NCBI GenBank assembly: GCA_012838635.1
Contig: DUOW01000005.1
Coordinates: 15,555-79,554 of the forward strand
From: Acholeplasma sp.
GTDB lineage: Bacteria; Bacillota_I; Bacilli_A; ML615J-28; CAG-698
DNA length: 64,000 nucleotides
Direction of reading: 5' to 3'
Positions 14,636-64,000 of the stretch are shown here, in pieces. The notes below the pieces were generated by a model. The model did not search any database. It saw only the letters and a list, made by a program, of their open reading frames with translations, and was not told the origin of the DNA. Positions within the stretch are counted from its first letter, which is position 1. Every line of letters starts with the position of its first letter. Made by a program: the position numbers and the translations under genes.

Positions 14636-14803
14636 TAAAAAAGCTCGTGAAAATCTCCACGAGCAAAAACAGATCTATTATAATAGATTCTTCTTTCATC
14701 TAGACTGTTACTATCGGTTTTGGAGTTGCACCAAATCATGATTCTAAACGAACCTCGCAGACTTTACTGCCGGTCGGGAATTACACCCTGCCCTGAAGAT
14801 TTA
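14636..14803 (-). promoter_or_regulatory. FMN riboswitch (RFN element) with intrinsic terminator
   Basis: Minus strand reads CTTCAGGGCAGGGTGTAATTCCCGACCGGCAGTAAAGTCTGCGAGG ... ACAGTCTAGATGAAAGAAG, matching the conserved RFN core. Followed by the hairpin GCTCGTGGAGATTTTCACGAGC and TTTTTT (14636-14666). Confidence 0.9.
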
Positions 14804-14815
14804 TTAAGATAGTCT

Positions 14816-18786: not shown

Positions 18787-20148
18787 CTATTCTTGTGGAA
18801 CCAAGTCTTCCACACTTGATAATTCTTGTAATTTATCAAGACCACCAATTTCTCCTGCCTTAGATATTGCAATCTTCGCAAAGATAGGTCCTGTCGTTTC
18901 ATATACTAAAATGCTTAACATAATGATTGTGGAAATAATTGAATACATTGTTGGTAAAGTCTTACCTACAATTACTAACAAGCCAATAGAAATTCCACCT
19001 TGTGGCAATAACCCCAACCATAACCACTTACGAACATTAGGGTCGCTTTTAGCAATTCTTGCCCCTACATATGTACCAACATATTTACCTACACCTCTAC
19101 CTACAATGTACACTAATGCTATAATAGCAATCATCCATTCTACTCTTAAAATTCCTAAATCTAAACTAGCACCAGCCATTGTAAAGAATATAATATAGAA
19201 TGGTGTTGTAAAGTCATTAACTGCTGAAAATGTACGATCTGGTCTTCGAGCAAGATTAGCAATCATTGCTCCAGTAACAATACTAGATAATAGCGATGAA
19301 AGACTAATCCCATATTGCCCTAATAGTTTTTCATGATTTAATAAGTTAAATAACCCTACAGTAAGGATAATTGCGGCTACAGCTAAAATTTGAATATTAT
19401 CTCTTTCACAATCAAACTTCCTTGCTGCTAAAGATAATACTAGTCCAATTAGAGCACCTATCATCATTGAACCAAATACTTCAATAAATGGTTTAGTAAT
19501 CATCAGCCATAATGGCATTTCAACTCCTGGTGATGGTACTAAAATTTGGGCAATAGAAATAAAGAAACCAAAAACAATAATGCCAAAGATATCATCTAAA
19601 GCCGTAATAGGTAAAATTGCTTTTGTAACTGGTCCATAAACACGATATTGTCTAATAACCATTAAAGTTGCAGCTGGCGCCGTTGTCGCTGACATACTTG
19701 CAAGAATCAAAGCCATCGAAATATTCGGCTTAGCAAAAGGCTCATAAGTTAAGATTCCATGTGCCTCATTAAAACTTTGCGGTTTTGGTACAACAAGCAT
19801 TAATACAAACACAAATAATACTGCCCCCAATACCTCAAAAAAAGTAAGGATTGTAATTTCCTTCCCTTGCTTTTTAATATTGGCAATATTAAACTCACTC
19901 CCAATACTAAAAGCAATAAATGCTAAAGCCATCTCACTAATAAACCTTAAAGTGTCTTGATCATCAGCATTAATTATTCCTTTAAAACCAGGAATGATTA
20001 ATCCTAACGATGGCCCTAGTAATACACCAAAGATTAAATAACCAGAAACATTTGGTAATTTTAAAGCTTTGGCCACTTGTCCACCAATAAAGCCAACAAT
20101 TAAAACAATTGCGACTTTAACTAAAACGTTAAATAATACGTCATTCAT
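18787..20148 (-). CDS. cation:proton antiporter (CPA1/CPA2 family, Na+/K+:H+ exchanger) lacking any RCK/KTN domain
   Basis: 453 aa, about 12 TM, with an N-terminus typical of Kef/NhaP-type exchangers. GGAGGG RBS. Directly downstream of a c-di-AMP riboswitch. Confidence 0.8.
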   Translation of the reverse strand: MNDVLFNVLVKVAIVLIVGFIGGQVAKALKLPNVSGYLIFGVLLGPSLGLIIPGFKGIINADDQDTLRFISEMALAFIAFSIGSEFNIANIKKQGKEITILTFFEVLGAVLFVFVLMLVVPKPQSFNEAHGILTYEPFAKPNISMALILASMSATTAPAATLMVIRQYRVYGPVTKAILPITALDDIFGIIVFGFFISIAQILVPSPGVEMPLWLMITKPFIEVFGSMMIGALIGLVLSLAARKFDCERDNIQILAVAAIILTVGLFNLLNHEKLLGQYGISLSSLLSSIVTGAMIANLARRPDRTFSAVNDFTTPFYIIFFTMAGASLDLGILRVEWMIAIIALVYIVGRGVGKYVGTYVGARIAKSDPNVRKWLWLGLLPQGGISIGLLVIVGKTLPTMYSIISTIIMLSILVYETTGPIFAKIAISKAGEIGGLDKLQELSSVEDLVPQE

Positions 20149-20171: not shown

Positions 20172-20322
20172 AATAAAAAAACGCATAACTAAAGTTATAC
20201 GCTTAATCACTCCTATGAGGTTAGCTGACGGGTTCAGGCAATTAAGTTGCCTTACGCTTTAATTAAGCGATTCGCCCCAAGACTTTGGTCCCCCACCCGA
20301 ATGATTCGGAGTTCATTATCAC
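20172..20322 (-). promoter_or_regulatory. cyclic-di-AMP riboswitch (ydaO/kimA class) with intrinsic terminator
   Basis: Minus strand reads GAACTCCGAATCATTCGGGTGGGGGACCAAAGTCTTGGGGCGAATCGC ... CCTGAACCCGTCAGCTAACCTCATAGGAGTG. This matches the ydaO conserved blocks (GGGGACC.., GGGG.GAATCGC, CCCGTCAGCTAACCTC.TA.G). Followed by the terminator GCGTATAACTTTAGTTATGCG + TTTTTTT (20174-20203). Confidence 0.85.
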
Positions 20323-49371: not shown

Positions 49372-50438
49372 TATACTTCTTTTTTCGATAATTGTCTTCT
49401 TTGATTTTCTGTAATTAAAGCTTCAATAATCGGGTCTAATTTACCATTCATTACACGGTCTAATTGTTGGATAGTAAAGTTGATTCTGTGATCAGTTACC
49501 CTATTTTGAGGATAGTTATATGTTCTGATTTTTTCAGAACGATCACCAGTACCAATTTTTGCTAATCTTTCCTTTCCAACTTGTTGTTCTTGTTCTTGAA
49601 GTGCATGTTCATACAATCTTGCTGCTAAAAGTTTAAAAGCTGTTGCTTTGTTTTCGTGTTGACTTCTTCCATCTTGGCATTGAACAACAATTCCAGTAGG
49701 CATATGTGTTAAACGAATAGCTGATTCGGTTTTGTTTACATGTTGACCACCAGCACCACCTGAGCGATAAGTATCAACGCGAACATCATTTAAATCTAAA
49801 TCAACTTCAACTTCATCAACTTCAGGCATTACTAAAACAGTAGCTGTCGATGTATGAATTCTTCCGCTTGCTTCTGTTTCTGGAACTCTTTGAACACGAT
49901 GGGCACCAGATTCATATTTTAAAAATGAATAAACACTATCGCCATTAATCATAAACTCAATCTTAGAAAATCCGCCTGCATCTGAAGGTTCAGAGTTGAT
50001 AACTTCAATTGTCCAGCCTTTCTCTTCCGCATACTTAGAATACATTCTAAATAAATCCCCAGCAAAAATATTAGCCTCATCTCCACCAGCAGCTCCTCTA
50101 ATCTCACAAATAATGTTTTTATCATCTTGAGGATCTTGAGGTATAAGTAAGATTTTTAACTCTTCTTCTACTTTTAAGATTTCTTCTTTAACACCTTCAA
50201 TTTCTAGCTTAGCAAGTTCTGCTATTTCTAAATCATTTCCGTTAATTAGACTTTCTAAAGATTTCTCTTCTTCTAATAAAGAGCGATAACTCCTAGACTT
50301 AGTTACAATAGTTTCTAGTCTCTTTTGTTCTTTACTTAAGTCTTTGACTTTTTTAAGATCAATTGCGATTTCTGGCATCATTAATAAATTGCAAATTTCT
50401 TCGTAACGGTCTTCTATTATTTGTAATCTTTCAAGCAT
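49371..50438 (-). CDS. prfA: peptide chain release factor 1
   Basis: GGQ motif (SGGAGGQHVNK) and PxT-region sequence. Confidence 0.95.
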   Translation of the reverse strand: MLERLQIIEDRYEEICNLLMMPEIAIDLKKVKDLSKEQKRLETIVTKSRSYRSLLEEEKSLESLINGNDLEIAELAKLEIEGVKEEILKVEEELKILLIPQDPQDDKNIICEIRGAAGGDEANIFAGDLFRMYSKYAEEKGWTIEVINSEPSDAGGFSKIEFMINGDSVYSFLKYESGAHRVQRVPETEASGRIHTSTATVLVMPEVDEVEVDLDLNDVRVDTYRSGGAGGQHVNKTESAIRLTHMPTGIVVQCQDGRSQHENKATAFKLLAARLYEHALQEQEQQVGKERLAKIGTGDRSEKIRTYNYPQNRVTDHRINFTIQQLDRVMNGKLDPIIEALITENQRRQLSKKEV

Positions 50439-51763
50439 TATCTTTTATCCTTATCTTCTGTAAACTTTAAGATATGTTTGAAGAATGTAATATCCATAAT
50501 ACCAGTTCTACCATGTCTATTCTTTTCAACTTTTAGTTTTAAGTTAGCAGTTTTTTGATTTCTTTCTTCATCTTCTTTATTGCTATAAATAAACATAACA
50601 ACGTCAGCATCTTGTTCAATACTTCCTGATTCTCTTAATTGAGCTAAGTTTGGCTCACCATCAGGTTTAGCAGCTGTTCTATTTAATTGTGATAAAGCAA
50701 TAATTGGAATATCAAGCTCCATCGCTAAAACTTTTAATGATCTAGAAATTGCCCCAACAATCTCCGCTCTTGTAGAAGAACGTCTTGGATTATCCAAATC
50801 AATTAATTGTAAGTAGTCAATGATAATTAAATCTAATTTACCATTTCTCTTTAAACTACGACATTGAGCCATAATATCAAAGATGTTAGCACTATTACTA
50901 TCATCTAAATATAGATTAAATCTATCGACTTGTGATTTAGCTGTTAGAATACTAGAAATTTCATTAGATGTTAATTGACCTTTATTAATCTTATCGTGAT
51001 CTACTGCTGACTCTGTACTAATTAGTCTCTTAACGATTTGTTCTTTACCCATCTCTAGAGAAATAAACGCTACATATTTTTTTTGTTTACATGCTGCAGA
51101 AGCAAAGTTTAAAGCTAGTGCTGTTTTACCAACACCTGGACGAGCAGCTAAAATGATTAATTCTTGTTTTTTAAAACCTGATAGAATTTCATTTAATCCT
51201 TTAAAGCCTGTATCAATACCAATCAACTCATTTTTGTTTTGCATTCTTTGGTTTATTTCATCAATAACTCCTGGAGTAATTGAATCTACTTTTGTAAGTT
51301 GATTAACTGATCTTTTGTTTAAAACATTTTTTACTAATCTTTCTGTATTATTTAAGATATCATCTGTTGCAAAACGGCCAGATAAAATATCGTTAGAAAT
51401 ATTAGATAACGTATGATAAAGTTCTCTTTGTAATGATTTTTCTTTAATTGTAGCTGCATATGTATCCCAACGAACATATGTTGGCAGAATATCAATTAAA
51501 TAACCAATATACTCAATACCACCTGATGCTTCAAATTTCTTTTCTCTTTTTAACTCTTCAATAACATTTGTATAGTTAATCTCTTGGTGATTTTGGTATA
51601 ACTTTTCCATTGCTTCCATAATATTCTTATGGCGCACGTCATAGAAATGTTCAGAATGAACACTATTTACGATAGCTGAAGCTTCTTGAGGATTAATTAA
51701 AGCTGAAGCTAAAATATATTGTTCTGATTCGATACTATAAGGTAATTGTCTTACTTCTTCCAT
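50438..51763 (-). CDS. dnaB: replicative DNA helicase (DnaB family; dnaC in B. subtilis nomenclature)
   Basis: Walker A ARPGVGKT and the RecA-like helicase C-domain. Position after rplI as in Bacillus. Confidence 0.95.
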   Translation of the reverse strand: MEEVRQLPYSIESEQYILASALINPQEASAIVNSVHSEHFYDVRHKNIMEAMEKLYQNHQEINYTNVIEELKREKKFEASGGIEYIGYLIDILPTYVRWDTYAATIKEKSLQRELYHTLSNISNDILSGRFATDDILNNTERLVKNVLNKRSVNQLTKVDSITPGVIDEINQRMQNKNELIGIDTGFKGLNEILSGFKKQELIILAARPGVGKTALALNFASAACKQKKYVAFISLEMGKEQIVKRLISTESAVDHDKINKGQLTSNEISSILTAKSQVDRFNLYLDDSNSANIFDIMAQCRSLKRNGKLDLIIIDYLQLIDLDNPRRSSTRAEIVGAISRSLKVLAMELDIPIIALSQLNRTAAKPDGEPNLAQLRESGSIEQDADVVMFIYSNKEDEERNQKTANLKLKVEKNRHGRTGIMDITFFKHILKFTEDKDKR

Positions 51764-51765
51764 AA

Positions 51766-52209
51766 TTATTCCTTTCCAACTACATAAACAGTTAATTTAG
51801 CTTTAACTTCAGGATGAAGATCAACCGTAACTACATATGTTCCTAAAGCATTAATGTCTTCTTTAATAATCTTTTTGCGATCTAAAGTAATATCGTATTT
51901 TGCTTTATATTCATCAACTATCATTTTACTACTTACAGAGCCAAAGATTTTTCCTTCTTTGCCTACTTTAACACCAATTGTAACTGGGTTTCCTTCAATC
52001 TTGTCGCGTAGTTCTTTCATTTCATTCTCTTTACTTAAAGCTAAACGTTTCTCTTTTTCTTTTTCTTTTTCAAGTTCTTTAATATTATCTACTGTTGCCA
52101 TAATCGCTTGACCACTACGAATAAGGAAGTTTCCATATCCACTCTTAACATCGATAATATCGCCTTTTTTACCTTTACCTTTAACTTCAGTCGTAAGTAT
52201 AATTCGCAT
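51766..52209 (-). CDS. rplI: 50S ribosomal protein L9
   Basis: 147 aa, MRIILTTEVKGKGKKGDIIDVKSGYGNFLI canonical L9. Own RBS GAGGAGGA 4 nt before the ATG at 52209. No stop codon separates it from the upstream gdpP frame. Confidence 0.9.
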   Translation of the reverse strand: MRIILTTEVKGKGKKGDIIDVKSGYGNFLIRSGQAIMATVDNIKELEKEKEKEKRLALSKENEMKELRDKIEGNPVTIGVKVGKEGKIFGSVSSKMIVDEYKAKYDITLDRKKIIKEDINALGTYVVTVDLHPEVKAKLTVYVVGKE

Positions 52210-54204
52210 TGAATCTCCTCCTCTCTCTTCTGAAATATCAATTTCTTTTAGAAGCAATTCTCTTGCTTCTTCCACATCTACTCCTCTTAACTGGCAGGCA
52301 GCATTATTATAATGGCCACCTCCACCTAAGGCTTCCATAATTAGTTGCACGTTAGTTTCATCTAAACTACGAGCACTAATTCCTATTTCATTATCCGAAA
52401 TTCTACCTAAACAAAACGACGCTTTAATTCCTTTAATCTCTAAAACATCATCAGCTACTTTAGCTAAAAACTGTCTTGGATTAGCATCATCTTTGATTGT
52501 AGCAATTCCATACTTTTCTTTATAAATCATAACGTTAGATAAAACAGTAATTCTCTTTTCATATTCGTCATAATCTTCACGCAAATATTTCTTTGCAAGT
52601 TGTAGCTCACCACCATAAGTTTGTAGTCTTGATAAAACGTTAAACGTTCTATAACTTGCACGATACATTAAGTCGTTAGTATCTACTAAAATACCCATTA
52701 CCATCCATGTTGCTTCAGCACTACTTACTGTAATATCTTTATCAATAAATTCATACATCTCCACAATTAACTCAATTGATGAAGATGCAGATGATGTTTG
52801 ATAGATATAATCATATTTATCAACTAAGAACTTACCAGGACGGTGATGGTCAATTACAGCTACATGTTTAGCTTTTTTATAAAGTTTTGGTTCCATCAAA
52901 ATCTTTTGGTTTTGAACATCGACAATTATTAATAAATCATGAGTTTTAATATCTCTAATTGCTTTTTTAGTACTAATTAAATAGTCAAGTGTAGCCGTAT
53001 GTTCTCTTTGAATAATTGAATATAAATACTGAATTGTTTGATCTACTTTATCTAAGTCAAAAACAATTTTTGCTTCTTTGTTATAAGCTGTGGCAATCTT
53101 TTGTACAGCAATTGCTGCCCCAAAAGCATCAGCATCAGCATCAATATGTGTCATAACATAAACTTTATTAGCCTTAAGAATTAATGATACTAATTCTTCA
53201 GCTTTAGTTCTTACATAAACAGGAGATCTACTTTCAAAAGAAGCAGTCTTTCCCCCAAAGTAAGAAACTTCTCCATATTTATTTAAAACACATTGGTTTC
53301 CACCACGATTTAAAGCTAATTGTAATTGTGCTTCAGCTAAAGCAAATAACTCAACATAACTTAAATCAGCATTATCAGCAATCGCAACTCCAATTGATGC
53401 ACTTGATCTAATATCTTCTTTCAAACAATATGACTTAATGTCATCAATTACTTTAAATTCATCTTTCACAACTTCTTTAAGTTGTTTTTCGTTTAATAAA
53501 ATTAAATATTGGTTGTCACTATAACCTTTTAAGTAGATTCCAAACTTGCCACACCAATCACTTAAAATACCAATGATGTTACTCATCTGTGATGATCTTT
53601 CTTGCGCATCAAAGCCAGATAAAGCATCATTTAAGTTATCTAAGTTAATAATACCAGCAGATAAAGTATGATCTGCATATTTTTGTGTTAAGTTATGAAA
53701 ATCCGTAACGTCAGTTAAATAAACGATGTTTTCTTCCATTAAAACTTTACATGAAAAAATAGATCCATATAAACTAATTTCAAACTCTTCTTCATTGGAT
53801 AAGTTGTAATATAAATCTGAGCTAATGTTTTCGATTTTAACATCAACTAATTCGCTTAAGAAAATTTCCTTAGCATAAGCATTAGCCCATTGAATTGTTT
53901 TGTTTTTATTATAGACAATAATACCAATAGGTAATTTATTAAAAGCTGTTTCTCCACCTTTTTTAACACGGTAAGAAATTGAGTTCCATAACTCATACCT
54001 TTGTTCTAACCATTGCATTTTTCTAAACTTCTTATTCCCAACATTTAAAACAAAAACTGTCGTAAATGATGCTGCGACAATAACTAAAGCAACATAAGTT
54101 AGCCATTCGTTTATTTCCCCAAAAATAGCTGTGAAAATAAGTACGAAGCAAGAAGCTAAGAAAAGCATTAAAGATATTATTCTATAGACTAATGTATTTC
54201 TCAT
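52210..54204 (-). CDS. gdpP: GdpP/YybT-type c-di-AMP phosphodiesterase (2 TM, PAS, degenerate GGDEF, DHH/DHHA1). It lacks its own stop codon and reads in-frame into rplI
   Basis: Two N-terminal TM helices. DHH motif region (HIDADADAFG) and DHHA1 GGGGH. 665 codons up to the rplI ATG. The six-frame ORF continues for 812 aa. Confidence 0.8.
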
Positions 54205-54296
54205 AAAATCACCATCTTAACTATATTATTATACCATAACTAGAAGTAAAAATAAACTCTTTATCTTAAAAACCAAATAAAAAAGAGTAGCATAAA

Positions 54297-54518
54297 CTAC
54301 TCTTTCACAAATGGTAATAACGCCATATGACGTGCTCTTTTTATTGCTACAGCTAATTGTCTTTGATAGATAGCTTTTGTTCCTGTTGATCTTCTTGGTT
54401 TAATTTTACCACGATCAGTAACGAATCTTCTTAATAATTCGTAGTCAGTCCAATCTATCTTTTCAATTTTATTATCTGTAAAATAGCAACTTTTTCTTCT
54501 TCTTGGTCTAAATGCCAT
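54297..54518 (-). CDS. rpsR: 30S ribosomal protein S18
   Basis: Canonical S18 sequence (RRKSCYFT...). Terminator hairpin after the stop. Confidence 0.95.
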
Positions 54519-58617: not shown

Positions 58618-59129
58618 TAATTGACCCTCCCTATATAATTTTTAGACTCATACTGTCCTTTTAATAACTTAACGATGTGAATAAATATTTCAACTCTAGG
58701 AACATTATTATTGGTAAAGATCCCAATAGCACCTTCTTTAGTATTAATCTCTTCTTTATTATAATGATAATTCATAATATCTGCAAGTTCTTTTCCTTCT
58801 TCATAAATTTCATTATAGATAAACTTAGGTAAAGGAATTTTTGTTCCCGATGCCAGATAAACATTATCATCTTGATCTATTAAAACCCCAAAGTTAATTA
58901 GAAATAAGATATCTTCTTCTAAACTAACACCTGCTTCTAAACCAATCCTTAACCCATCTTTTGGTAAAGCTTTAGCTCTATTGTAAGCACCTTGCATCGT
59001 TTCCTTTTCGCTTTTAGGTTGGTTAGATACCTTACTATCAGTCTTCAAAGCAATAACAGTAGCTTCCTTAAAAACTTCTCTTACTGCTTCTACTTTAGTT
59101 CTGTTTTGACTAGCGATATATACTTTCAC
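58617..59129 (-). CDS. inosine/xanthosine triphosphatase (YjjX/DUF84 non-canonical purine NTP phosphatase)
   Basis: N-terminus MKVYIASQNRTKVEAV... and E.G pattern typical of the YjjX family. Confidence 0.6.
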   Translation of the reverse strand: MKVYIASQNRTKVEAVREVFKEATVIALKTDSKVSNQPKSEKETMQGAYNRAKALPKDGLRIGLEAGVSLEEDILFLINFGVLIDQDDNVYLASGTKIPLPKFIYNEIYEEGKELADIMNYHYNKEEINTKEGAIGIFTNNNVPRVEIFIHIVKLLKGQYESKNYIGRVN

Positions 59130-60187
59130 TTCTTTAATTCAAGTAATCTTTCTTTACTAAAATCTTTTATAATTTCTAAAACAATTGCCTTTACCGCTTC
59201 TACATCCCTAACATCAATCATTGATGTATTAGAGTGAATATATCTTCCTGGCAGGCCAATTGTAATACTAAAACATCCACTACCGGCATATTGAGCTATA
59301 GCAGCATCTGTTCCCCCCATTGATAAAAAGAATTGATAATCAATCTTGTGTTTCTTTGCCAACCCTTCTACATACTCAAGCATCTTAGGATTCATAATGT
59401 TACGTGGATCATAAAATCTAATTAAAAATCCTCCATTTAACTTTCCAAAAGCATCTCCTGGTCCAGGTGTTGCATCACCAACTGGCGAAACATCAAGAGC
59501 AATAAATAGATCTGGTTCTACCATTTGTGATGATGTCTTAGCACCACGTAAACCTACTTCTTCTTGAACTGTTGCCCCACAAATTACTGTATTTGGATGG
59601 CTAATATTCTTAAGTTCACGAAATACTTCTAAAGCCATTCCTGTACCAAAACGGTTATCCCAAGCTTTAGAAACAATTCTATTTTTATTTTTTGTTATGT
59701 AATAATCATTTTCAAAAGTTAAAAAGTCTCCTGGTTTAATGCCCCACTTTTCTAAATCTTTTTTTGATTCAGCCCCTACATCAATAAATAAGTTTTCTAC
59801 TTTAATTTCACCATTAGCTCCCATATGTGGTGGTACAGAAGCAACTACACCTTTAACTTTACCTTTAGTAGTTTCGATAACAACATTTTGTGATACCCAA
59901 ACATGAGGAACAACTCCGCCAATATTAATGAACTTGATAAATCCGTTTTCTTGAAGTCTTGTAACCATACCACCAACTTCATCCATATGCCCAGCAATCA
60001 TAATTACTGGTTCATCTTTCTTTCCTCTTTTTACACCAAAAACAGAGCCTAATCCATCTCTTAAAATTTCATCAGTCTCTTTCTTGTATTCTTCTAATAA
60101 ATATTCTTTAACTAAACCTTCATCACCACTAGGACCATTTAAGTTAGTTAAGTCTTCATATAATTTCATTCTTTTCTTAGTTGTCAT
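59126..60187 (-). CDS. M42 family glutamyl aminopeptidase (FrvX/YsdC/PepA-like)
   Basis: MTTKKRMKLYEDLTNLNGPSGDEG and metal-binding HMDEVG, 353 aa. The ATG at 60187 is preceded by AAGGCGG 6 nt upstream. Confidence 0.8.
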   Translation of the reverse strand: MTTKKRMKLYEDLTNLNGPSGDEGLVKEYLLEEYKKETDEILRDGLGSVFGVKRGKKDEPVIMIAGHMDEVGGMVTRLQENGFIKFINIGGVVPHVWVSQNVVIETTKGKVKGVVASVPPHMGANGEIKVENLFIDVGAESKKDLEKWGIKPGDFLTFENDYYITKNKNRIVSKAWDNRFGTGMALEVFRELKNISHPNTVICGATVQEEVGLRGAKTSSQMVEPDLFIALDVSPVGDATPGPGDAFGKLNGGFLIRFYDPRNIMNPKMLEYVEGLAKKHKIDYQFFLSMGGTDAAIAQYAGSGCFSITIGLPGRYIHSNTSMIDVRDVEAVKAIVLEIIKDFSKERLLELKK

Positions 60188-60817
60188 TTTTACCGCCTTT
60201 ATATAATATATATTTTTATTTTCTTCTTTAAATTTTTGTTCATATTCTGTTTCAACAGAATCATTAATTTTTGAATCAAAGTCAGTACTTTGTTTTTTAA
60301 TTATAAAGTTAGTTTTACTTAAAGTAGATAAACTATAATTAAATAAATTTTCATTATCTGTCTTTAATTCTAGTACTCCCTCATTTACTAAGATATCTAA
60401 ATATTGTCTTAAAAAGTGAGGAGCTGTTAATCTTCTTTTCGCATGCCTTTCTTTAGGCCAAGGATCAGAGAAATTCAAATAGATTTTCGAAACTTCTAAA
60501 CTAGCAAAATAATCAAGTAGATTATTGGCATCAACACTTAATAAATAAATATTTTCAAGTTTAGTTTTGCTAATCATTCTTGCCGCTTTTAAAAGCACAG
60601 TATTTGACTTTTCAATTCCAATATAATTAATATTAGGATTTAAGACAGCACTTTCTTTTAAAAACTTTCCCTTACCCATCCCAATCTCTAAATGAATAGG
60701 ATTATTATTTTTAAAAAGCTCATTCCATTTTCCTTTATATTTATTAGGCTCAGCTATATAATAATCTTTAAATTCTAAGAGTTTAAGATCAGCATCTTTA
60801 ATATTCTTAATACGCAA
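60188..60817 (-). CDS. trmB: tRNA (guanine46-N7)-methyltransferase TrmB. It lacks its own stop codon and reads in-frame into the M42 peptidase gene
   Basis: 210 codons carrying TrmB motifs (IHLEIGMGKG, NFSDPWPK). The six-frame ORF continues as one 563-aa frame. Confidence 0.75.
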
Positions 60818-62222: not shown

Positions 62223-64000
62223 CTATTTGTTTTTATTATACATTTCCATAAATTTAAGTTTAATATCTTCTACACTAAAGCCATATGCTTTTAAAACAGC
62301 TTGTGGCTTACCACTTGTACCAAATTTATTTACATTATATAAAACACCAGTACGATTGATAAATAAAGCTAAATGCATAGCTTCACTTAACTCTAAAGCC
62401 ATAATGTTTTTAGAATCAGGAATAACTTTGTTTATATATTTTTCATCTCGACTTAAAAAAACATTAACTGAAGGAATAGAGCATACTCTTATATCAATTC
62501 CTTCTTTTAATAATTCATCCTTAACATCTAAAGCTAGTTTACATTCAGAACCAGATGTTACAATAATACCATCTAATTTAGACTTTTCTTTAGCAAGTAT
62601 ATATCCACCTTTTAAAGCATCTTTAAGATGTTTACTTTTAGTAACTGTAGGAACATTTTGTCTTGTAAGGACAAAAACACTTGGGCGATTCTTATCACTT
62701 AAAGCCTTCTCCCAACAAGCAATCAGTTCATTTCCGTCAGCTGGACGGAAAACATTTAAGTTAGGAATGCTTCTAAGCATTGTTAACTGTTCAATCGGTT
62801 GATGAGTTGGACCATCTTCTCCAACTGCTAAAGAGTCATGACTAAAGATATAAAACACTTGATTTCCCATTAAAGAGGCTAGACGTATTGCCGGCTTTAA
62901 ATAATCAGAGAAAACAAAGAACGTAGAGGCAAAACCAATTAGGCCACTATGAAGACTAATACCATTAGTAATTGCTCCCATCGCATGTTCTCTAACACCA
63001 AATCTAATATTAGCTCCCTCTTTATTATCTTTTGAATAAAAACTGCTGTTAAGGCAAGCTTTTGTAGAAGAAGCTAAATCAGCAGCACCACCAAATAATG
63101 TCGGTAATTGTAAATAGATCTCGTTCATTACATCTTGATTTAAACTTCTTGTAGCTGCTACTTTATCTTCATAAAGAGGTAGTTTGCTAAAGTCAACTTT
63201 ATATTCTTTATTTAAAGCTTTTTTAAAGTTTTTATATTCTTCTGGATATTTTTTGCTATAAGCTTTTAAATCTTCTTCCCAAGATAGATATCTAATTTTA
63301 CCAACTTCTTCGCGTTTTTGATATGAATCTTTAACTTTTTTCAAAACAGTAAAAGCATCTCCCCCTAGCTTACTTCTAAATGAAGCAACTTCTTCACTTG
63401 GAAGAGGTGAACCATGAACTTTGTTTTGGCCTTCTAAACTAGAACCATGACCAATTTTTGTTTTTACTTCAATAAAATTTGGCTTATCACTAACTTTAGC
63501 TTTTTCTAAAGCTTTATCAAGTTCTTCAAGATTTTCTCCATTCTTTACTAAATAATAAGCAAAACCTAAAGATTCCATATATTCTTTAAAATCAAAAGAA
63601 ACAATATCTTTAGTTGGTCCATCTAATTGAATATCATTAGAATCAAAGATAATAATTAATTTATTCAAATTGTTATGACCTGCAAAACTTAAAGCTTCTA
63701 AAGCAACTCCTTCTTGCAAATCTCCATCACCACATAAACAGTATGTATAATGATCTACTATGCTTAAATCTTCTTTATTAAAAACAGAAGCTAGATGACT
63801 TTCAGCTAAAGCTAACCCAACTGCCATGCCAATACCTTGCCCTAAAGGACCAGTTGAAACATCAACACCATCAGTAATGCCTACTTCTGGATGTCCTGGT
63901 GTAGGTGTCCCTAGTTGACGGAAATTCTTTAAATCTTCTAAAGATATATTATATCCTGCTAAGGCTAAAGTTGCATATAGAATTGATGAGCCATGCCCTG
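62223..64000 (-). CDS. tkt: transketolase (5' end beyond the window)
   Basis: My translation of 63828-64000 continues the frame with GHGSSILYATLALAGY...GHPE...TGPLGQGIGMAVG (TPP-binding region). The ORF track shows only the portion from an internal Met. Confidence 0.9.
   Translation of the reverse strand, partial: GHGSSILYATLALAGYNISLEDLKNFRQLGTPTPGHPEVGITDGVDVSTGPLGQGIGMAVGLALAESHLASVFNKEDLSIVDHYTYCLCGDGDLQEGVALEALSFAGHNNLNKLIIIFDSNDIQLDGPTKDIVSFDFKEYMESLGFAYYLVKNGENLEELDKALEKAKVSDKPNFIEVKTKIGHGSSLEGQNKVHGSPLPSEEVASFRSKLGGDAFTVLKKVKDSYQKREEVGKIRYLSWEEDLKAYSKKYPEEYKNFKKALNKEYKVDFSKLPLYEDKVAATRSLNQDVMNEIYLQLPTLFGGAADLASSTKACLNSSFYSKDNKEGANIRFGVREHAMGAITNGISLHSGLIGFASTFFVFSDYLKPAIRLASLMGNQVFYIFSHDSLAVGEDGPTHQPIEQLTMLRSIPNLNVFRPADGNELIACWEKALSDKNRPSVFVLTRQNVPTVTKSKHLKDALKGGYILAKEKSKLDGIIVTSGSECKLALDVKDELLKEGIDIRVCSIPSVNVFLSRDEKYINKVIPDSKNIMALELSEAMHLALFINRTGVLYNVNKFGTSGKPQAVLKAYGFSVEDIKLKFMEMYNKNK

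Follow-up and report, generated by a model that had tools for sequence, protein, structure and literature searches.

It has long been known that gdpP adjoins rplI, for reasons that are unexplained. It is also well established that one reading frame can yield a long and a short product by in-frame internal initiation, as in Escherichia coli with infB (IF2 alpha and beta), cheA (long and short forms) and clpB. The canonical gdpP-rplI-dnaC operon is well documented in Bacillus, Staphylococcus and Streptococcus (PMC5575661, PMC4568413). The locus described here, which lies in a 64-kb stretch of DNA that was analysed as a whole (the window), shares with that operon its gene order, that of a co-transcribed set of GdpP, L9 and replicative helicase, as well as the domain set of GdpP. 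However, the genes of the canonical operon are separate cistrons, whereas in the window the stop codon between gdpP and rplI has gone, so that a GdpP-L9 polypeptide must form. As in infB, cheA and clpB, there is an internal Shine-Dalgarno (SD) sequence with an in-frame start, and the short product would be the tail of the long one. Unlike in those genes, the short product would be a whole ribosomal protein of separate ancestry and the long one would join two unrelated proteins, both products being predicted from the sequence.

Such a fusion has been recorded before. NCBIfam holds the family NF011110 (PRK14538), named 'putative bifunctional signaling protein/50S ribosomal protein L9', and the window protein shares its colinear GdpP-then-L9 architecture, residues 34-810 matching positions 55-834 of the 838-position profile end to end in a single stretch (E=1.9e-187). 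Its score of 625.1 bits is under the curated equivalog cutoff of 707 bits, which places it on a more divergent branch than the sequences used to train the model; related fused proteins score from 362 to 751 bits, and only P0130, from Acholeplasmatales, passes (751 bits). In addition, Table S3 of Grosjean et al. (2014; PMC4014445) attaches the flag 'fusion' to rplI of Acholeplasma laidlawii (ACL_0196) and of three phytoplasmas, namely Ca. Phytoplasma mali (ATP_00177), Ca. P. australiense (PA0149) and onion-yellows phytoplasma (PAM012); in the portion of that table covered here, rplI of Spiroplasma-group and Hominis-group genomes is left unflagged. The paper gives the flag only and discusses neither the fusion partner nor an internal start. 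The flagged genes belong to the same clade as the window, to which they are likened by flag, not by sequence; the order rplI-dnaB-prfA in A. laidlawii and the phytoplasmas also matches that of the window (PMC3750655). A full-text literature search returned no study of a GdpP-L9 fusion product, the flag in Table S3 being the only mention. Annotation has, then, already recorded the GdpP-L9 fusion for the Acholeplasma/phytoplasma clade, and what appears to go beyond the earlier records that we found is the clade-wide retention of an internal start, its loss in five lineages and the independent retention of the L9-derived tail in lineages that carry another rplI. We consider it highly probable that the gdpP-rplI fusion is genuine, ancient and selectively maintained, that its single ORF gives two products and that the L9 module is under selection.

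The gdpP::rplI ORF occupies 51766..54204 (-) and, in the ORF listing, encodes 812 residues from an ATG start to a TAA stop. It contains no in-frame stop (table 11), six TGG and no TGA codons, so that a Mycoplasma-type code (TGA read as Trp), considered as a possible cause of the long frame, is irrelevant. At the junction, the GdpP peptide ...LLKEIDISEERGGDS leads directly into MRIILTTEVKGKGKK, the DNA reading GAA GAG AGA GGA GGA GAT TCA ATG CGA. Six Pfam domains were found above their gathering scores, namely PAS_GdpP (80-166), GGDEF_GdpP (186-312), DHH (347-505), DHHA1 (565-655), Ribosomal_L9_N (666-711) and Ribosomal_L9_C (728-809). The ORF listing, the junction sequence and the Pfam matches all confirm the stop-less passage from gdpP into rplI that the first-pass annotation had described.

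The GdpP moiety (residues 1-665; 52210..54204 (-)), delineated by Pfam, hydropathy, AF2 secondary structure and PDB match, consists of two N-terminal hydrophobic helices, PAS_GdpP, a degenerate GGDEF, DHH and DHHA1, in this order. The two transmembrane helices appear as Kyte-Doolittle peaks at about 5-30 and 35-55 and as AF2 helices at 4-28 and 33-90. In an alignment of 26 diverse fused homologues, both the DHH catalytic motif, D452-H453-H454 (52843..52851 (-)), and the GGGH motif of DHHA1, G628-H631 (52312..52323 (-)), are invariant; the domain set of a GdpP is complete, with both motifs. Residues 86-656 match the c-di-AMP phosphodiesterase 9n0l_A (E=5e-66), and 5xsi_A is matched with E=9e-56. 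That the organism uses c-di-AMP is indicated by a riboswitch for it elsewhere in the window (20195..20321); the GdpP moiety is a predicted membrane c-di-AMP phosphodiesterase. The L9 moiety (residues 666-812 plus the stop; 51766..52209 (-)) comprises L9_N, a long helix and L9_C. It matches both PF01281 and PF03948 as well as TIGR00158, the latter with 107.2 bits against a cutoff of 58.6, and so has the domains and the score of a bL9 protein; PDB entry 1div matches its residues 1-146 (E=7.6e-30), and the AF2 model shows the canonical two-domain dumbbell with a long helix at 705-738. No second L9 gene was found within the 64-kb window.

Were the ORF an artefact of sequencing or assembly, or the result of a recent stop mutation in this one genome, one altered base (TCA for TAA or TGA) would be enough to explain it, and outgroups carry TAA at exactly this codon. 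Yet the identical 812-aa protein is present on 12 contigs assembled independently from independent samples, all of which have the gene order of the window, rpsF-ssb-rpsR-[gdpP::rplI]-dnaB-prfA-prmC. Moreover, the fusion recurs in all relatives from 97% down to about 33% identical, with differing codons before the ATG, and both NCBIfam and the Mollicutes literature record it. The closest genome is an Acholeplasmataceae MAG, and the window's relatives are named Acholeplasma sp., Acholeplasmataceae and Acholeplasmatales by NCBI. All six domains are present in the best 120 homologues (48-97% identical), except in two C-terminally truncated fragments; the full-length members measure 806-820 aa, and their source names are of the form '50S ribosomal protein L9 [Acholeplasmataceae bacterium / Bacilli bacterium]'. 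A library grouped at 50% identity yields 45 fused clusters before an ordinary GdpP of about 650 aa appears, and the best 120 of 3310 further relatives of P0130 are all fused. An alignment of the fused proteins also served to retrieve 80 metagenomic loci, which were classified as fused or separate: all loci of at least 33% identity in which both halves are present are fused, whereas separate gdpP and rplI genes occur in loci of at most 32% identity and in an Acidaminococcaceae genome.

Exact-sequence look-up and the homologue surveys rule out a sequencing error or private mutation, and we regard an origin of this kind as exceedingly improbable. The gdpP::rplI ORF is a real fusion that typifies the Acholeplasma/phytoplasma lineage and uncultured Bacilli related to it. 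The first-pass annotation had left three explanations standing. A genuine translational fusion is supported by the comparative evidence of the 12 contigs and of hundreds of fused relatives, the most distant about 33% identical; a sequencing error is refuted by the identical contigs and the fused relatives. A stop-codon point mutation holds as an ancient origin, in view of the outgroup TAA before the ATG in the same frame, but fails as a recent or private lesion. The comparison it had proposed, for a stop between gdpP and rplI in related genomes, gave a split answer, with none at or above 33% identity where both halves are present and separate genes at or below 32%.

How the two genes came to be joined can be read from the separate-gene loci, in many of which gdpP and rplI are already in the same frame. 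Five of them (L061, L065, L069, L084 and L087) have TAA ATG, and in other same-frame loci the gdpP stop is 1-6 codons 5' of the rplI ATG, the SD of rplI lying within the gdpP tail or in a short intergenic spacer. In 43 of 48 fused proteins, 33-35 residues separate the GGGH motif from the L9 Met (34 in the window protein), a spacing equal to the median of 34 residues from GGGH to the C terminus in unfused GdpP. In the AF2 model (pLDDT 83), the last DHHA1 helix ends at residue 661, with only G-G-D before the first L9 strand. The in-frame stop-ATG arrangement of the outgroups and the equal GGGH distances suggest that the fusion arose by simple stop loss, with no linker added. In the ancestor that these outgroups imply, gdpP would have been followed by rplI in a shared frame, its stop immediately preceding the rplI ATG and its last codons holding the rplI SD; loss of this stop would have joined GdpP to L9. 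In a weakly resolved neighbour-joining tree of the GdpP part, a single clade of 49 tips holds all 44 fused representatives. Its remaining five tips are unfused and share one sub-branch with a fused protein (P0143), which suggests one ancient fusion together with a single reversal or else a second origin.

The start signals of rplI are still in place inside the fused ORF. The internal SD GAGGAGGAGAT lies at 52213..52223 (-) in the codons for E-E-R-G-G-D, with its AGGAGG core at 52222..52217 (-), where the first-pass annotation had placed an SD in the last GdpP codons (E-E-R-G-G). The motif GAGGAGGA spans 52223..52216 (-), and its AGGAGG is 7 nt 5' of the L9 start codon at 52207..52209 (-); the corresponding residue, Met666, is invariant in the alignment of 26 fused homologues. 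A free L9 of 147 aa would have its own translation start in this combination of AGGAGG and ATG. In duplex with the 16S tail (15-nt anti-SD), the internal SD has an energy of -18.8 kcal/mol, against -10.5 kcal/mol for gdpP's own start. The centroid mRNA fold leaves it unpaired, and there is no significant mRNA structure that would mask or regulate it (z=-1.4); a search inside gdpP for a sigma-70 promoter of rplI gave no excess of promoter-like matches (23, compared with 20.4 in shuffles).

The same signals are seen throughout the fused clade. In 37 distinct fused junctions, the L9 start is ATG in 35 and GTG in two, and is preceded by purine-rich SD forms such as GGAGG, GAGG, AAGGAG and GGGAG. 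The mean anti-SD duplex energy at these junctions is -8.96 kcal/mol, as opposed to -1.55 kcal/mol for 814 other in-frame ATG or GTG codons within the same fused ORFs (Mann-Whitney p=4e-24), although the junctions compared share phylogeny and such p-values overstate significance; it is indistinguishable from the -9.6 kcal/mol of the separate-gene relatives. The linker octapeptides, on the other hand, show a pairwise identity of only 20% (EERGGDS, EDGGMTT, DKGDQN, LEEEN, QEERP and others). A linker peptide that varies while SD and start are kept points to a constraint at the nucleotide level.

These comparisons bear on the possibility that the fusion is obligate, that is, that only full-length GdpP-L9 is translated, L9 being used in its fused form or after proteolytic release, with the SD-like sequence a mere reflection of a Glu/Gly-rich linker. 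The stop is indeed absent, so that every ribosome starting at gdpP makes GdpP-L9, and the modelled Gly-Gly could act as a hinge. However, the strength and spacing of the SD are kept at the level of a free-standing rplI despite the low conservation of the linker, and GTG, which would be read as Val if internal, is tolerated alongside an SD. As a ribosomal protein, L9 is needed in ribosomal amounts, while GdpP is a low-abundance membrane enzyme; such a stoichiometry also argues against an obligate fusion, with gdpP's own SD much weaker than the internal one. A further argument comes from the five lineages described below that lost both SD and start, four of which have a separate rplI; the fifth (L096) has neither a start nor an SD nor a nearby rplI for its L9 module, and keeps the obligate reading alive for some lineages. 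As a general explanation, we consider it very unlikely. We infer instead that free L9 is made by internal initiation wherever the fused ORF is the sole rplI, as it is within the 64 kb of the window. Ribosomes starting at the weak gdpP site would read through to give a membrane-anchored GdpP-L9 of about 92 kDa, whereas those starting at the stronger internal SD and ATG (52222..52207) would give ordinary free L9 for the ribosome. The earlier expectation that free L9 would still come from the internal ribosome-binding site is thus well supported by the comparative retention of SD and start across the 37 junctions.

The five fused representatives that depart from this pattern have AAG, CTG, TTA, GCA or AAA in place of the L9 start, and what is left of the SD has duplex energies between -3.1 and +0.3 kcal/mol. 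In the four with AAG, CTG, TTA and GCA (L097, L098, L100 and L101; SD -2.4 to +0.3 kcal/mol), a separate canonical rplI with an SD of -9 to -10 kcal/mol follows immediately downstream; it encodes 147-148 aa where complete and is cut by the contig end in L097. No second rplI was found within 4 kb in L096, and none of the 35 junctions that keep the L9 start has a second rplI nearby. The association between loss of start and SD and an adjoining separate rplI gives a Fisher p=5e-5, for cases that are phylogenetically non-independent. Neither a stop nor a frameshift interrupts the L9-derived tail of GdpP in the four lineages that have a separate rplI; the tail stays open over about 144-164 aa and is only 22-39% identical to the adjoining rplI product. 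A functionless tail at such divergence would be expected to gather stops, which argues that the fused L9 module is under selection, and the persistence of a diverged tail beside a free rplI suggests that this selection is independent of L9 supply. The best reading of these data is that the fused L9 module would be selected as a domain of GdpP, beyond supplying L9.

It might be argued that the fusion and its dual expression are real but that the attached L9 module has no function of its own, the fusion persisting as a neutral by-product because a stop is rarely re-created, or because GdpP folding has come to depend on the tail. The target for a harmless new stop is small, since just 3-4 codons follow the final DHHA1 helix, and the five nested unfused representatives may be reversals. 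For both reasons we give less weight to the argument, drawn from stop-prone linker codons, that the lack of reversals implies selection. The L9 module is, moreover, not known to have a biochemical role. Nevertheless, 44 clusters (at 50% identity) retain the fusion, the four lineages with their own rplI keep their diverged tails open, and a ratchet based on folding dependence would still amount to selection on the module. We therefore judge a purely neutral by-product unlikely and continue to favour a selected L9 module.

What the module does for GdpP could be either to contact the ribosome or rRNA or to serve a purely structural role within the enzyme. The KGKGKKG loop is degenerate in some of the tails that stand beside a separate rplI, and loss of this rRNA-binding loop counts against the canonical L9 site in those lineages. 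It is a tentative and rather doubtful proposal that the L9 module is a working GdpP domain that either anchors ribosomes at the membrane or docks the phosphodiesterase on the ribosome or on rRNA, and in this way physically couples c-di-AMP turnover to translation. If so, the fusion would be a Rosetta-stone clue to an interaction of GdpP with L9 or with the ribosome, one that would also explain the near-universal gdpP-rplI neighbourhood in Firmicutes. An order-wide fusion speaks, on comparative grounds, for a functional connection of c-di-AMP degradation with the ribosome, and our comparative results offer a testable hint of such a GdpP-ribosome link, for which A. laidlawii is a suitable cultivable organism. 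As regards annotation, the gdpP::rplI ORF should be given neither a 'repair' nor a pseudogene or frameshift flag; it is better labelled as GdpP/L9 with an internal L9 start, since the NCBI name '50S ribosomal protein L9' hides a c-di-AMP phosphodiesterase.

Around the fused gene, dnaB, encoding the replicative helicase (50438..51763 (-)), starts 2 nt after the L9 stop. On the upstream side, the gdpP ATG (54204) is preceded by GGTGAT (54208..54213 (-)), a putative weaker SD-like sequence. An extended -10-like element, TGGTATAAT (54228..54236 (-)), was read upstream of gdpP and could be a candidate promoter for gdpP::rplI-dnaB; it has a poor -35 and was not scored by the promoter scan. A terminator-like hairpin followed by a T-run (54281..54306 (-)) overlaps the rpsR stop. 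Elsewhere in the window, the apparent N-terminal truncation of a transketolase at 62223..63827 is merely an effect of the window edge.

The window contains a second stop-less junction, which the first-pass annotation had reported between trmB and an M42 peptidase gene, and which was found as an ORF of 563 aa at 59126..60817 (-), with Methyltransf_4 (TrmB) at 39-204 and Peptidase_M42 at 257-543. The suspicion that two such junctions might betray a systematic stop-loss problem is without support, as this fusion is reproduced in independent assemblies: it recurs in nine clusters at 87-100% identity, and is also present in a few relatives that are 40-43% identical. M42 relatives at 50-60% identity are mostly stand-alone, and NCBI labels the neighbouring TrmB protein 'Acholeplasma sp.'. 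TrmB::M42 is a real fusion, either younger or sporadic.

The later history of the fusion between the c-di-AMP phosphodiesterase GdpP and ribosomal protein L9 can be followed in metagenomic loci that encode related fused proteins. At L097, L098, L100 and L101, the C-terminal L9-derived module of GdpP has diverged and has lost both its start codon and its Shine-Dalgarno (SD) sequence. In each of them the gene directly after the gdpP fusion is a canonical, stand-alone rplI, which is preceded by a strong SD. This arrangement indicates that rplI was duplicated after the fusion and that the copies were subfunctionalised. At a further locus, L096 (GCA_040777085.1, contig JBEVUJ010323286.1), which encodes a fused GdpP-L9 (4001-6460), position 1 of the L9 part is Lys, the rRNA-binding KGKGKKG loop is degenerate and no SD precedes the L9 part. 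The immediate next gene is dnaB, and no separate rplI was found within 4 kb; either rplI is located elsewhere or free L9 is not produced.

In the window, rpsF-ssb-rpsR has a perfect TTGACA-17-TATAAT promoter (55376-55348). The stop codon of rpsR overlaps a terminator-like hairpin and its T-run (54281-54306, minus strand); these are followed, 24 nt upstream of the gdpP ATG, by an extended -10-like TGGTATAAT (54228-54236, minus strand), so that gdpP::rplI-dnaB may be transcribed separately from rpsF-ssb-rpsR. A promoter-like TTTACC-18-TATAAT at the L9 start (52174-52203, plus strand) points antisense into the gdpP 3' end, resembling the case of B. subtilis, where a gdpP antisense RNA occurs; promoter-like matches around it are no more frequent than in shuffled sequences.

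The second stop-less junction reported in the first-pass annotation, between trmB and an M42 peptidase, is likewise a real gene fusion. A single 563-aa ORF (59126-60817, minus strand) joins a tRNA (m7G46) methyltransferase (Methyltransf_4, residues 39-204) to an M42 aminopeptidase (residues 257-543) through ...YYIKAVK|MTTKKRMKLYEDL, with the internal Met at the junction preceded by 'aaaggcggtaaaaATG'. The fusion is found in close relatives and in a few relatives at 40-43% identity, while M42 stands alone in the majority.

The window also contains a c-di-AMP (ydaO-type) riboswitch (87 bits; 20195-20321, minus strand), with the gene for a transporter of the Na+/H+ exchanger family (18787-20148, minus strand) 47 nt downstream of it. 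The riboswitch shows that the organism has active c-di-AMP signalling. The N-terminal truncation of transketolase (62223-64000, minus strand) suggested by the ORF list is not a lesion; it is a window-edge effect, since the frame is open up to the edge. Other minus-strand elements include an FMN riboswitch (14684-14804) and a T-box leader (2462-2663) upstream of threonyl-tRNA synthetase (519-2423).
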